IMG/VR virus record: IMGVR_UViG_2681813234_000010
Coordinates: 1-16,514 of that record
Reading direction: 5' to 3' (one strand)
Origin: a virus
Taxonomy: Duplodnaviria; Heunggongvirae; Uroviricota; Caudoviricetes
Length of the DNA stretch: 16,514 nt
Shown in pieces: positions 1 through 16,514 of this stretch (the stretch's first letter is position 1; the number at the start of each line of letters is the position of its first letter). Below the pieces are notes generated by a model. That model was not told where the DNA came from. It was given only the letters and a program-made list of their open reading frames with translations, and made no database searches. A program made the position numbers and the translations under genes.

Positions 1-1236
1 TTGGGTGAACATAAACGTTACAATGACGAGGTTATTCATAATGTCTATCCGAAAGTCATAGATGATGATTTGTTTCTCACAGCTAATCGCATGATGGATC
101 GTGTGATGTTGGAGAAGAATAAACCAGCAGAAGACCTGTTACTTGAATCTGATGTGGTGCAAGAGATCTTTCAGCTATATGAAAGTGGGCTTGGCTCAGG
201 TGCTATCGTTAAGCGTTTGCCGAAAGGGTGGAGTACTGTAAATGTACTAAGGGTTTTACGTGACAAAAATGTAGTAACGCAGAAGATTATCGATAACTTA
301 ACTTTTGAGCGTGTGAATCAAAAGTTGTCAATGAATGGTGTAGCCAATCGCATTCGGAAGGATATAACTATTGCACAAGATGATTACATAACTAACTTAT
401 TCCCGAAGATCCTTAAGTGCGGTTATTGTGGTGGTAATGTTGCGATTCACTATAATCATGTTAGAACGAAATATGTGATTTGTCGAAATCGAGAAGAAAG
501 GAAGATCTGTGATGCAAAATCCATACAGTATATTAGAATTGAAAAAAACATACTCAAATGCGTGAAGAATGTAGATTTTCAAAAATTAATGATAGAAAGT
601 ACTGGCAGTGAAACTTCAGTGCTGGATGGTCTGCATGAAGAGCTATCATCATTACGCAGAGAAGAAAATAGTTATAGCGATAAAATAAATGAAAGAAAAT
701 TAGCAGGTAAAAGAGTAGGTATACATCTCAATGATGGGTTAACGGAGGTGCAGGACAGGATTGAAGAAATAGAAAAAGAAATTATCAATGCTCAAACTGT
801 AAGAGAGATACCTAAATTTGATTTTGATATGGATGAAGTACTTGATCCAATGAACATAGAGCTACGAGCGAAAGTGCGAAAACAGCTTAGGTTAGTACTT
901 AAAGCAGTGAAATACTGGATGTTCGATAAGCGTATTTTTATCCAATTGGAATACTTCAATGATGTACTTTCACACATGCTTGTAATTGATAATAAACGTG
1001 GCGGTGGAGATGTAATATATGAAATGTCTATTGAAGAAAGAAAGGGTGAACGAATCTATACAGTTCATGAAAATGGTCATGCAGTTTTCATTGCATCAGT
1101 AACTATCGGCACAGATATATGGTCATTAGCTTTAAGCCGCACACGTACAATTGATACCATTGGCAATTACCTAAGCCTCCTTGCTCGTGAAGGTTTTGAG
1201 ATCTTTGTGAACGAAGATCAAATTGATTGGTTTTAG
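1..1236 (+). CDS. int: Large serine recombinase (phage integrase), C-terminal ~410 codons; the 5' end lies upstream of the window
   Basis: Frame is open from base 1 to TAG at 1234-1236. The translation shows the tail of a recombinase domain, then a four-Cys zinc-ribbon (KCGYCGG ... CRNREERKICD) and a long charged, coiled-coil-like segment. That order is typical of large serine integrases. The catalytic resolvase domain is not in the window. Confidence 0.75.
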   Translation: MGEHKRYNDEVIHNVYPKVIDDDLFLTANRMMDRVMLEKNKPAEDLLLESDVVQEIFQLYESGLGSGAIVKRLPKGWSTVNVLRVLRDKNVVTQKIIDNLTFERVNQKLSMNGVANRIRKDITIAQDDYITNLFPKILKCGYCGGNVAIHYNHVRTKYVICRNREERKICDAKSIQYIRIEKNILKCVKNVDFQKLMIESTGSETSVLDGLHEELSSLRREENSYSDKINERKLAGKRVGIHLNDGLTEVQDRIEEIEKEIINAQTVREIPKFDFDMDEVLDPMNIELRAKVRKQLRLVLKAVKYWMFDKRIFIQLEYFNDVLSHMLVIDNKRGGGDVIYEMSIEERKGERIYTVHENGHAVFIASVTIGTDIWSLALSRTRTIDTIGNYLSLLAREGFEIFVNEDQIDWF

Positions 1237-1316
1237 TATTGTGAGAGTACCTTACTTTCAATAAGTATGAAAATTCTTTGGAGAACGTAGTTTTTACGTT
1301 TTAAACTTTATTTTCA

Positions 1317-1347
1317 CCTCGCAGGAGCGATTCTGCGAGGTTTTTCC
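1317..1347 (+). terminator. Rho-independent terminator downstream of the integrase gene
   Basis: Perfect 8-bp stem CCTCGCAG (1317-1324) / CTGCGAGG (1333-1340) with an 8-nt loop, immediately followed by TTTTT (1341-1345). Confidence 0.6.
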
Positions 1348-1465
1348 ATGTATGGTAATGCAATGAGGTGAGGCGTGGCTTGGGGGGGCGTATAGAGCGT
1401 TACAGGAAGGATTTGCGTTAAGTGTTAGTTTGATGTGCATATCTGAGTATATTTTCCTATTATCT

Positions 1466-1494
1466 TTGACCAGTCCTCGGGAATAATATATAAT
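1466..1494 (+). promoter_or_regulatory. Sigma70-like promoter (TTGACC, 17-bp spacer, TATAAT)
   Basis: -35 TTGACC at 1466-1471 and a consensus -10 TATAAT at 1489-1494 with a 17-bp spacer, about 90 bp upstream of the ORF starting at 1584. Confidence 0.5.
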
Positions 1495-13412: not shown

Positions 13413-13424
13413 TAAGGAAATCAA

Positions 13425-13955
13425 ATGGCACTACTACCAGACAAGATCTATTTGGTATCAAATCCAATGGATCTAACGGTAAAAGTACCCGCTGCTACGA
13501 TTCTCGTTATTAGTTTTACTTCATCCGGTCAAAGTACATCATTAGATAATCTCAATGGCAGTACTTCAAAAGATTTTACGGTTACATTAGATATAAGTAC
13601 AGCAAGTGAATTACTTTTCTGTACTCAAATATCTAACGGACAAGCCAGTACATTTACTTCTGAGGTCATTAATCCATTACTTTATACTTCTGAATACGCA
13701 CAATTGAAACAGATGATCAGTGAAATTGATACGGTAATTGCTAATAAAATTGCAGGTGGTGCTAATTACTCAATCACAATCAATAATAAAACTCTTGTAA
13801 GTGAATCACTATCATCACTTGAATCCATGCGTGAACGCTATGTGAAGCGTGCAAACTCACTATTTGTAAAAATGAATGGCGGTACTTTATCCAGTGGCGG
13901 CAAACCAATCAAGAGTATTACGGTTTTCAAGCCTAAGCCAGGGAGTACACGCTAA
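13425..13955 (+). CDS. Hypothetical head-module protein (176 aa), possibly a gpW-like head-tail joining protein with an N-terminal extension
   Basis: ATG at 13425 with AAGGA 6 nt upstream. Its stop overlaps the portal start (TAATG). It occupies the position that gpW holds in lambda, between terminase and portal. Sequence similarity to gpW is weak. Confidence 0.5.
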
Positions 13956-15463
13956 TGTTCTGGAATAAAAAAGAAGTCACACAAGAAGCTAAACCTAAGA
14001 AACAAAAACAAGAGCGTAGTACTAAACCATCAACACTTAAACGTGATATTCAGGCAGTACGCAACACATCGGTTATGAATTTTGGATTTAATGCTAATTC
14101 AGGAAGCAATATCAACTTTCTGATATTTAAAGCACTACCTACCATGCGAGCGTTTTCACGTGATGCAGTACTTAAAAACCCAATTGGGCGAAAGTACATG
14201 AACCTTTCCGTGGATGGTGTAGTAGGTTCTGATGGTGTTTATGTGAAACCAGCGGTAGAGATTGACGGCAGCGAAGATGAAATTAACCAGATTAATGAAC
14301 AATTAGAGAAACTATTTGATCGTTGGGCTTATGATCCAGACCGCTTTAGCGTCGATGGTGCTTTAAGTTTCGAGCTATTCCAACAAAATGTAGAGAAGAT
14401 TAGGGTACAAGATGGTGAATGCTTTATCAGAATTCATACTATTAACCGTCAAATAAAATTAGAAATCTTAGATACTGCTCGTTTACAGCAATCCAATAAT
14501 CAACATTTAGCCAATGGTAATTATATCAGTAATGGTATCGAATTTGACCAATGGCACAGACCAGTAAATTACTATTTCTCTAGATTTGATCCCGTTACGT
14601 ACACGTACAGTACTGGAGATTATGAAGTCATTCCGGCTAATGAAATATGCCACTACTTCATAGCAGACCAGCAAGGGCAGGAACGCGGATTACCCGATTT
14701 AGTCGCTACAAGTAAGTTAATTGAAGATCTGAAGAACTTCACAGAGGCTGCATTAACAGCAAAACGTGTAAGTGCTTCCAGTATGGCATTCATTACTAAT
14801 AATAACGACACTACCAGTACAGATCTGTTAGGTGCTGATGAGCGTGATGAAGTTACACCAGTATACACAGAGTACTTTGAAGCGGGCTTTATTGGTGAAT
14901 TAGGTGAAGGGCAGGACATTAAAACTGTCACTCCGACGAATGGTGTAGATGGTATCGATCAGTTTACTAATGAACTCATGAATCAAATTAGCATGGGCTT
15001 AAACGTAACTAAACAGGCTCTATTATCTGACACATCTAATGCTTCATTCAGTGCTGCACGATTAACAGAAAAACTACAACAAACCACTTTCCGTACTCGA
15101 ACCAATGTACTTATCAGTAAAGTACTCAAACCAATCTATATAGCTTGGTTAAAGAATGAAATGATTAATAACAGCAAATTGAATCTCAGTTTCTCAGACT
15201 TTGATGATCTCATTTGTGCTCGCTACATTCTACAAAAGCCAATTAGTTTAGATCCTGTAAAGGATATACAGGCTGAACTACTTCAATTGGAAGCAGGTAT
15301 TAAATCTAAAACTCAGGTTATCGCCGAACTTGGTGGTGATCCAGTCAAGGTATTAGCAGAGGTACAGGCAGAAAAGGAAAAAGAAAACCCAAACAAGGAA
15401 GTTAACCAGGATGGAAATCAAAAACCAGAAGAGGGAACTAACGATACCCCTACAGGCGATTAA
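13955..15463 (+). CDS. Portal protein (lambda gpB-like)
   Basis: 502-aa ORF with GGAG 9 nt upstream. [49 protein letters not shown] parallels lambda gpB LLRYIAAGLGVSYEQLSRNYAQMSYSTARASANESWAYFMGRRKFVAS. Gene order (terminase, portal, protease) is as expected. Confidence 0.85.
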
Positions 15464-16514
15464 TACAGAATCGCGAACTATCGATGTAGCGTTTTGCTCA
15501 GAAACACCAGTAGAGCGTGAAATCAATGGTGAAATCTATAATGAAATCCTTCTATGCGGTTCTGATAACGCAGACCTACGCCGTCTTAATCAAAATGGTG
15601 CAGTACTCTTTAATCATAATCGTGATGATCTCATTGGTGCTGTTGTATCTGCACATATGGACGCCGACCGTGTAGGACGTGCAACGCTACGTATTAGTAC
15701 TACCGCTAATGATGAATGGGAAATGATTCAGGAAGGCGTACTAACACATATCAGTATTGGCTATAACATTAATGATTACTACATTTCTGGAAATAATATC
15801 TACGTTTCCGATTATGAAATCTATGAAATTAGCTTAGTTACAATACCAGCAGATGCTTCTGTAGGCGTAGGCCGTTCAATGGAATCCGATATTGAAATTG
15901 ATTCACTAAATAAAGCAGGTGAAACAATTCAAAAGGATCAATTCATGGAAGAAACAAATAACGATAGCGAAATTGAAACGACAGTAGACGCTACCGAACA
16001 GGAAGTTAAAGACGAAGTTGAAGAAGTAGTAGAACACGTAGATGAAGTTAAACGCGATCTAAGTGATGAAGAACTTTTAGATATTCTTTCTAAACGTCCT
16101 GACTTACTCAACAAAGTACAAGGTGAAGAACCGGAAATTATAAATAGTACTGATGATACTGAACGTGTACGCGAACTAGAAGCACTCGGTAAAGTACTTA
16201 ATATTGATGTATCGGATGCCATTGGTAAAGGAATTACCGTGACCGATTTCAAACGTCAATTGAATGACATTAAAAACAATCCTAATCATGATAAGGAAAT
16301 CAAATCGATGGATAAAAATCTATTAAAGGATATGCTACGTGCTATCAAAGCCGGTGATAAAACCTCTCTTGAAGGTTATGAATTCGGTAAGAATGGTTAT
16401 GTACGTGCTGTAGTACCTTCAACTAATACTACTACGGCTGCTGGTGTAGTCGCAGATGATCTACAAGACCAATATATTCCAGAGCTATTAAAGCTATTAG
16501 ACTGGCCCCCTGAA
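15411..16514 (+). CDS. Prohead protease (HK97 / S78-like), 3' partial; continues past the end of the window; not in the supplied ORF track
   Basis: Frame is open from ATG 15411 to the window end (368 codons, no stop). [12 protein letters not shown] ... ISIGY ... [15 protein letters not shown] matches the HK97-family prohead protease pattern (His, Ser, and the E-x-S-L-V-x-x-P-A block). An acidic, scaffold-like stretch follows. The start overlaps the portal gene end by 53 nt. Confidence 0.7.

Follow-up and report, generated by a model that had tools for sequence, protein, structure and literature searches.

The window and its genes

We analyzed a 16,514-nt stretch of viral DNA (Caudoviricetes; positions 1 to 16,514 of the IMG/VR virus record IMGVR_UViG_2681813234_000010), hereafter the window, in which the palindromic hexamer AGTACT is strongly over-represented, together with the phage family to which it belongs. 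Pfam searches of the window identified the C-terminal part of a large serine recombinase, a Nu1-like small terminase subunit (TerS), a GpA-type terminase large subunit (TerL), a lambda-family portal and an S78 prohead protease, with small open reading frames (ORFs) and cargo genes in between (Table 1). The serine recombinase gene marks the left end of the prophage, and in a related copy in Escherichia coli AREA_C483 the full-length gene abuts host yeaG.

Table 1 Features of the window and their AGTACT content.
Feature	Position	Strand	Basis and content
Scattered AGTACT sites (55)	1..16514		Exact count; flanks not conserved
Large serine recombinase, C-terminal part	1..1236	+	Pfam Recombinase, Zn_ribbon_recom; 4 AGTACT sites
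Noncoding cluster of four GTACT	2512..2560		GGTACT at 2512, 2531; AGTACT at 2540, 2555
Two 16-bp direct repeats	4123..4246		15/16 identical, AGTACT in each; intergenic region 3670-4403
Variable cargo: DUF3800 and 187-aa ORF	9133..11030	-	Pfam; 1 AGTACT site in 1.9 kb
TerS ORF	11069-11617		
TerL (GpA ATPase and nuclease domains)	11523..13412	+	Pfam; 11 AGTACT sites
Portal gene (lambda family)	13955..15463	+	Pfam; 5 AGTACT sites

AGTACT is in excess at the DNA level

The AGTACT sites of the window (3.3 per kb) start at positions 232, 598, 837, 894, 2118, 2540, 2555, 2690, 3092, 3407, 3551, 3930, 3982, 4128, 4236, 4261, 4774, 5792, 5828, 6787, 7001, 7401, 7484, 7674, 7799, 7824, 8436, 8599, 8766, 8850, 8885, 8956, 10110, 11338, 11561, 11712, 11726, 11762, 11891, 12108, 12306, 12639, 13059, 13101, 13308, 13560, 14018, 14167, 14609, 14871, 15121, 15602, 15696, 16146 and 16193. 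With a base composition of A.339, T.288, G.197 and C.176, the expectation for independent, identically distributed bases is 5.5, giving a 10-fold excess, and AGTACT is the commonest hexamer of all in the window. An earlier reading made from the letters alone (the sequence-only reading) had put the number at about 50 and the enrichment at about 8-fold; the exact count bears out the first figure, and the strong excess stands at a higher value than the second. Simulated Markov backgrounds, a check which that reading had proposed, predicted 5.0 ± 2.4 sites at order 1, 10.6 ± 3.0 at order 2 and 24.0 ± 4.7 at order 3 (maximum of 36 in 200 runs), all well below 55. The order-4 model reproduced the observed count (51.7 ± 6.6), only because the same signal inflates the pentamers AGTAC (n = 84) and GTACT (n = 81). 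Of all 64 palindromic hexamers, none but AGTACT reaches 10-fold; the runner-up is CAATTG at 2.4-fold, and AAGCTT is missing against an expectation of 5.5.

An excess of this kind could be a by-product of the codons used or the amino acids encoded (AGT, ACT, GTA and TAC) or could come from a dispersed repeat element, and in the window AGT and ACT rank among the commonest codons for Ser and Thr. However, a synonymous-codon shuffle that left the protein and the codon usage of each gene unchanged yielded 10.7 ± 2.9 sites in the window genes (maximum of 19 in 1000 shuffles) against 47 observed (z = 12.6), and permutation of codon order yielded 5.7 ± 2.4. The gene models, which are ORF-based approximations, place 46 sites in genes on either strand and in all three frames (21/7/18), and 9 sites fall in ~2.26 kb of noncoding DNA, at a density equal to or above that of coding DNA. 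The shuffles and the noncoding density rule out a codon or amino-acid artefact, and the lack of any conserved sequence beyond the AGTACT core rules out a longer motif or a repeat resembling repetitive extragenic palindromes or miniature inverted-repeat transposable elements (REP/MITE-like); the chance that the excess is such a by-product is negligible. The sequence-only reading, which had called the excess real, unexpected for a phage, spread over coding and noncoding DNA alike and acting on the DNA, is upheld here, and the codon-usage account that it had set as its own refutation falls short of the count. In the proteins of the window, Ser-Thr is encoded as AGT-ACT in 21 of 40 cases (4.4 expected), and two dipeptides occur more often than expected, Ser-Thr (40 vs 20) and Val-Leu (41 vs 27). 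Core genes carry ~4.2 sites per kb vs ~1.6 per kb in variable cargo, with TerL the densest core gene (5.8/kb).

The two local groupings that the sequence-only reading had pointed out, the four-GTACT cluster and the AGTACT-bearing 16-bp direct repeats, are both present. The cluster sits directly upstream of an HNH-endonuclease-like ORF at 2579-3079 (phrog_953, E = 1.5e-38), and the repeats read GAAGCAGTACTATCAA (4123-4138) and GAAGTAGTACTATCAA (4231-4246). The AGTACT at 3930 lies in the middle of an inverted repeat, imperfect and found by eye (GCGTTTTTTCTCG..CGAAAAACACGC, window 3916-3948), in the same intergenic region as both 16-bp repeats; judged by its sequence, it could act as a terminator, or have a regulatory or origin-like role. 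The longest ORF for TerL and the TerS ORF share 95 nt (window 11523-11617). The true TerL start probably lies near 11625, since the RefSeq annotation of the AREA_C483 copy starts TerL 8 nt past the TerS stop. A two-gene cargo cassette occupies window 6110-7630 (+), with an HNH endonuclease (6110-6838; weak PADLOC match to a type IV methyl-directed restriction endonuclease) and a DUF6998 protein (6839-7630; PADLOC PDLC03212, "Type II methyl-directed restriction enzyme", E = 1e-62). This cassette is also found in E. coli strains such as MB19, at ~84% identity.

The excess is family-wide and stops at host boundaries

The window belongs to an uncultured, low-GC family of temperate phages of Enterobacteriaceae, whose members have 36-44% GC in hosts of ~50-55% GC. 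A megablast search against phages found no cultured relative, and the best TerL match among 50,697 phage records shows 35% identity. By TerL, related prophages occur in Buttiauxella, Scandinavium (96% TerL identity), Pluralibacter, Enterobacter and Pseudescherichia, and also in E. coli, and 62 IMG/VR contigs carry relatives of the window. One of these contigs, IMGVR_UViG_2737471853_000007, encodes a TerL 100% identical to that of the window (tblastn), and the assembly index holds no record of the exact TerL protein. Identity of TerL within the family falls to 63-68%, with all members in Enterobacteriaceae. Among the conserved small ORFs searched with Pfam and PHROGs (window 1237-11068 and the right arm of the AREA_C483 copy), no replication module, repressor or Cro-like regulator was recognised.

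AGTACT is enriched in every one of the ~90 related loci, among them all 68 related by TerL (2.5-13.5x) and the right-end loci of the family. Over 55 non-redundant loci (907 kb) we counted 2382 sites where 298 were expected (8.0x, and 3.8x over an order-2 Markov background). A scan of all hexamers placed AGTACT as the top outlier (z ~70), followed by five words each of which overlaps it. The flanks hold at most 0.15 bit per position over 2379 sites. Along the family genome the density is roughly uniform (2-4/kb); inter-site spacing peaks at a few distances because conserved site pairs recur in related loci.

The signal ends sharply where the element ends. In E. coli AREA_C483 the host flanks contain 1 AGTACT in 24.7 kb vs 57 in 17.6 kb of element, and the IS3, IS5 and ISSen4 insertion sequences (IS) and the group II intron within this copy, which have host-like GC, contain close to none. 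Three further sharp boundaries agree (E. coli STEC384, a Citrobacter freundii remnant and E. coli MB19), so that the host flanks of the four strains (three E. coli, one C. freundii) together contain 4 sites in 76 kb vs ~3/kb inside the element. Host-inherited oligonucleotide bias, one of the explanations offered by the sequence-only reading, is refuted, because adjacent host DNA and the inserted IS elements are nearly free of the word. The AREA_C483 copy itself (locus L069; NZ_CP123310.1 2151860-2176662, between yeaG and mipA) is a decayed one, 97.7% identical, interrupted by IS3-family, IS5 and ISSen4 insertions and the group II intron (ltrA), and with most structural genes deleted.

The E. 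coli MB19 locus is an island of ~13.8 kb (L291 27600-41400; NZ_CP073981.1, between ybaA and ffs; GC 0.39; AGTACT 8.0x) in which no phage structural genes were found, and which also has three genes for DUF4326, DUF488 and dual-OB proteins and, beside ffs, a tyrosine integrase. We rejected it as an independent AGTACT-rich element, as left-arm genes, DUF2188 and the HNH/DUF6998 cassette are common to it and the family. Since the left-arm genes and DUF2188 are shared, the island is probably a deletion remnant of the family, judging from gene content.

A low GC content inside hosts of about 50-55% GC (here 36-40%) would also be expected if the AGTACT bias were a relic of a former low-GC ancestral host that has not yet ameliorated. 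Such a relic should fade with time, as seems to happen in pseudogenised copies (old ones are only ~2.5x enriched), yet the excess persists at 63-68% TerL identity in members that are all in Enterobacteriaceae, and the word is still being gained at positions that differ between lineages and is preferentially retained, as described below. We therefore consider a relic highly improbable.

Elsewhere among viruses, a scan for AGTACT clusters gave no independent dispersed case among the matches listed, which were coding tandem repeats in large viruses (spacing in multiples of 9 or 18) and members of the family. Five large or giant-virus contigs (L114, L121, L142, L154 and L166) have very high local AGTACT density at spacings of multiples of 9, 18 or 27 nt; these are coding tandem repeats unrelated to the family, probably specifying Ser-Thr-containing peptide repeats. 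We found no report of AGTACT excess or of N6-methyladenine at AGTACT in enterobacteria in the searchable literature, which is incomplete, so that this is an absence of evidence only.

Sites turn over, are retained and alter proteins

Codon alignments were built from 50 distinct TerL and 48 distinct portal sequences. AGTACT occurs in at least one sequence at 26 positions of the TerL alignment and at 26 positions of the portal alignment. Single sequences contain 3-12 sites in TerL and 1-7 in the portal gene, and sites must therefore turn over. Only 2 of the comparable positions (51 of 52) are purely synonymous, and at 15 of the 51 all sequences lacking the site encode different amino acids. The alternatives are often 3-6 nucleotides away; for example AATCCA, GATACA, GAATTA and GATGCT stand opposite AGTACT, corresponding to Asn-Pro, Asp-Thr, Glu-Leu and Asp-Ala in place of Ser-Thr. 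At every divergence level, retention of AGTACT is about double that of other hexamers in its frame. Among 41 disjoint pairs of sequences, which even so share phylogeny, retention was 0.60 for AGTACT vs 0.40 for control hexamers, with 36 of the 41 in the same direction (sign test p = 8e-7). Turnover that changes amino acids, combined with better retention, shows that the word is created and protected at the DNA level, with the protein sequence paying for it.

Anatomy of the word and palindrome-poor lineages

Within the family, the NGTACN words are graded from AGTACT (8.0x) through GGTACT (4.9x), AGTACC (3.3x), AGTACA (2.8x) and TGTACT (2.2x) to TGTACA (1.0x). Variants at the inner positions are not enriched (~0.5-2x), and co-enrichment is confined to the outer-position variants (2.3-4.9x). 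No one-mismatch neighbour is depleted in the family under an order-2 background. In typical members the hexamer count equals the joint prediction of the two flank preferences (in the window, 51 expected from the pentamers and 55 observed). Half-sites AGTAC show no strand polarity along the family genome, where the skew stays within ±0.18 and no switch point was seen; this rules out a Chi-like signal or one resembling FtsK orienting polar sequences (KOPS).

Six loci (L221, L222, L052, L065, L066 and L095) depart from this pattern in that GTAC and the half-sites AGTACV/BGTACT are enriched and the full palindrome is depleted (odds 0.08-0.41). L221 has 4 AGTACT where 15.9 are expected (p = 5e-7), and L222 has 11 where 25.1 are expected (p = 4e-7). 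When these loci were pooled, leaving out L095, the outer variants alone rose (3.5-4.7x), and the inner variants, including synonymous ones, were unchanged. A rise restricted to the outer variants argues against simple ghosts of decayed palindromes and for a half-site AGTAC that is maintained in its own right. These palindrome-poor loci could serve as a natural experiment on AGTACT-specific restriction or on a changed specificity of whatever reads the word.

Restriction-site avoidance

The premise of the sequence-only reading that phages deplete palindromes is borne out within this very family. Its most avoided hexamers are GGTACC (0.06x), CTGCAG (0.06x), CGTACG (0.04x), TGGCCA (0.12x), CAGCTG (0.16x) and the GCGC words (0.1-0.2x); among tetramers CTAG stands at 0.34x, and GATC is at expectation (1.0x). 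AGTACT itself is the site of ScaI/Eco255I. RB49, an unmodified-cytosine coliphage, has 0 AGTACT sites, this being one of at least 16 palindromic hexamers missing from it, which shows that AGTACT is normally purged by enterobacterial phages. Phage surveys likewise report restriction-site avoidance and not strong excess (Rusinov et al. 2018, PMC6286503). We infer that the palindrome-poor lineages may reflect exposure to an AGTACT-specific nuclease.

Candidate readers

Three gene products are candidates, by sequence, for a protein that reads the word: a methyltransferase of phrog_3820, a GIY-YIG protein conserved in 17 of 20 right-arm loci, and the product of the HNH-like ORF 2579-3079. The conserved small proteins further include TerS and the product of a 174-aa ORF (3145-3669). 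The methyltransferase gene, which is not in the window, lies at the right end of many members and shares at least 11 contigs with TerL. Its PHROG label is "DNA methyltransferase", its motifs occur in the order X (GAFFTP), I, IV (NPPF), and its structural model (predicted local distance difference test score, pLDDT, 84.5) aligns over 205-214 residues with HsdM, MmeI, PacII, DrdV and PglX. On motif order and on a Rossmann fold of the HsdM, TaqI and MmeI kind, it is a predicted gamma-class N6-adenine DNA methyltransferase. Homologs at 32-55% identity occur in phages without AGTACT excess. A possible link of this methyltransferase family to the word through RB49-like phages (0 sites) was discarded, as RB49 lacks at least 16 palindromic hexamers anyway. 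PADLOC also matches the enzyme, weakly, with the MADS-system protein mad2. The slot that it occupies, beside DUF2188 and the attachment site, holds exchangeable defence-type cargo (L069 38039-41663; L263 8134-9871; L259 1-1322), namely the phrog_3820 methyltransferase, AbiGi with a lipoprotein, or a DUF3800 protein.

A host reader was considered in SlmA. The SlmA site, GTGAGTACTCAC, has an AGTACT core, and SlmA strongly needs G1 and T2 outside that core (Tonthat et al. 2011, PMC3020112). Phage AGTACT might thus be a decoy for this enterobacterial nucleoid-occlusion protein, or a means to hijack it. Yet GTR flanks accompany only 2.1% of AGTACT sites (3.1% expected), G at -1 and C at +1 are the least favoured neighbours, and there are 2 full SlmA-binding-site-like (SBS-like) sequences in 907 kb. 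The flanks rule out SlmA-binding sites, and we regard a role of SlmA as very remote.

The E. coli Chi octamer, GCTGGTGG, has a distribution of its own in the family, with 41 occurrences on the TerL-sense strand vs 5 on the other in 907 kb (~4 expected on each). One Chi site is conserved inside TerL (window 13155-13162), and ~10 other positions are nearly all on the same strand; Chi-carrying loci include L001, L004, L011, L018, L019 and L053. No Gam-like inhibitor was recognised among the ORFs scanned. These data suggest that the family makes polarised use of host Chi, perhaps for protection involving RecBCD. AGTACT is not a Chi signal, because it is unpolarised and ~60 times more frequent than Chi.

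Interpretation and alternatives

From the computed signal, its boundaries, turnover, retention and anatomy we infer selection and a mechanism: AGTACT may be a selectively maintained recognition word that tags phage DNA for a trans-acting DNA reader, with half-sites that are functional individually. We put the probability of this reading at roughly 0.45. The word would be a lineage-specific "iterated palindrome", a GTAC core with a 5' A and/or a 3' T, and the reader a trans-acting protein that recognises duplex DNA and would find phage DNA densely tagged and host DNA not, by a logic like that of Chi, uptake sequences or HIP1 but without the polarity. Each half-site AGTAC, on either strand, would contribute alone, and the hexamer would be two overlapping half-sites. 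Where the host has a nuclease that cuts AGTACT (ScaI/Eco255I-type) or an equivalent one, selection would remove the full palindrome and leave the half-sites. The process served may be methyl-marking, packaging, recombination or repair, or nucleoid organisation. More tentatively, and with rather less confidence, we suggest that AGTAC(T) could be the first iterated palindrome owned by a virus lineage, a selected and unpolarised self-tag for a phage- or host-encoded DNA machine that is traded away under AGTACT-cutting restriction.

Several points weigh against the recognition-word reading. The sole DNA-modifying enzyme found in the element is not universal. L263, which ends at host lplA with DUF2188 in place, has AbiGi and the lipoprotein in the methyltransferase slot and is enriched 7.3x; L259 has DUF3800 in that slot, and the TerL locus of the same contig (L019) reaches 12.6x; and the palindrome-poor L221 and L222 have the methyltransferase intact. 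A genome with ~100 AGTACT sites should, moreover, be very vulnerable to AGTACT-specific restriction. The shared phylogeny of the retention tests counts here too, and selection is not proven, because biased-repair drive also yields gains and retention.

Such a drive is the alternative in which site-directed biased repair or conversion, possibly linked to methylation, turns mismatches at near-sites into AGTACT and repairs mutations that lead away from the word, with no benefit to the phage; Elhai put forward a model of this kind for HIP1. The activity could be encoded by the element, for example by the nuclease-like proteins (GIY-YIG or HNH), alone or together with the methyltransferase. Drive predicts the gains and slowed losses that are observed, nuclease-like genes are conserved in the element, and the lower enrichment of cargo relative to core fits accumulation over time; words that deviate by one nucleotide do so mainly at the first or last position, as is the case for HIP1 (PMC4390886). 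However, none of the one-mismatch neighbours is depleted, unlike in the Vsr/CTWGG signature, and the lack of a depleted donor word in the family rules out a signature of very-short-patch repair of the Vsr type. Many gains needed 3-6 nucleotide changes and amino-acid replacements, for which a repair bias at the last step alone is insufficient, and half-sites are kept where the hexamer has been purged. For HIP1, conservation has been argued to favour selection over biased repair (PMC5861425). Drive is in our view unlikely, if still to be reckoned with.

We judge it less likely again that AGTACT is the target of the element's own N6-adenine methyltransferase (phrog_3820), with dense methylation as a functional mark for protection or epigenetic control. 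AGTACT is palindromic and contains adenine, the enzyme sits at the right end of many members, its motifs X, I and IV, confident model and PHROG annotation agree, and HIP abundance tracks cognate methyltransferases in cyanobacteria (PMC4390886). Against this, the excess is present without the enzyme in L263, and the palindrome is purged with the enzyme present in L221 and L222. Taken with L259/L019 and the homologs in phages without the excess, these mismatches indicate that the methyltransferase is neither necessary for the signal nor predictive of it, and we rejected it as a necessary cause, since it belongs to the variable cargo, is missing from L263 and occurs in palindrome-poor lineages. 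The sequence-only reading had listed a modification target among its explanations; a candidate enzyme does exist, but the simple form of the idea is unsupported.

Phages are expected to lose short palindromes, and this family loses many yet keeps AGTACT at ~100 copies per genome, altering proteins as it does so. Maintenance of the word implies a DNA-level constraint, so far unrecognised, in widespread uncultured prophages of Citrobacter, Enterobacter, Escherichia, Klebsiella and relatives. AGTACT is also a very sharp marker of prophage boundaries, of native vs inserted DNA and of recently acquired cargo, and its density predicts extreme sensitivity to ScaI-type restriction.

Comparison with known systems

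Compared with restriction-site avoidance, AGTACT is the same kind of type II-style palindrome as those which the family purges (GGTACC, CGTACG, CTGCAG, CAGCTG and TGGCCA), and some lineages purge AGTACT too. The sign is opposite, however, with an 8-10-fold excess kept over long divergence. The SlmA site shares the identical 6-bp core and the enterobacterial setting, but its GT(R) flanks are absent or disfavoured around the AGTACT of the family. Chi and the DNA uptake sequences (USS/DUS) are over-represented asymmetric "self" words that act with polarity and are read by RecBCD or by the uptake machinery. Like AGTACT, they occur densely, single out one type of DNA for the machinery that processes it and lie in genes in all frames, where they can shape peptides. 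Unlike these asymmetric and polar words, AGTACT and its half-sites have no strand polarity.

The closest known analog is HIP1 (GCGATCGC) of cyanobacteria, a palindrome that is 15-300x over-represented and conserved within and between ORFs, and on which selection has been argued to act (Xu, Lawrence and Durand 2018, PMC5861425). Words that differ from HIP1 by one nucleotide do so mainly at either end, methyltransferases are associated with it, and a methylation-dependent model of biased repair has been put forward (Elhai 2015, PMC4390886). In both systems a short palindrome far above codon-aware expectation is scattered over genes and noncoding DNA alike, conservation of its sites between genomes exceeds background, deviants concentrate at the two end positions, methyltransferase genes lie close by, some lineages have alternate or missing versions, and both selection and biased repair have been proposed as the cause. 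The descriptive features of a HIP-type word (excess, dispersion without conserved flanks, conservation and outer-position deviants) are all found for AGTACT; a word-specific methyltransferase wherever the word is abundant is not, as L263 lacks the enzyme and L221 and L222 have it. AGTACT is an AT-rich hexamer at 8-10x and HIP1 a GC-rich octamer at 15-300x, and the predicted N6-adenine methyltransferase associated with AGTACT is dispensable for the signal. HIP1 resides on the cyanobacterial chromosome, whereas AGTACT is restricted to a lineage of temperate phages and is missing from the chromosome of the host. HIP1 is the sole well-studied precedent and has gone unexplained for decades; a 35-kb enterobacterial prophage is far easier to study, and, if the recognition-word reading holds, would offer a small and genetically tractable system for the HIP1-type question of selection or drive.

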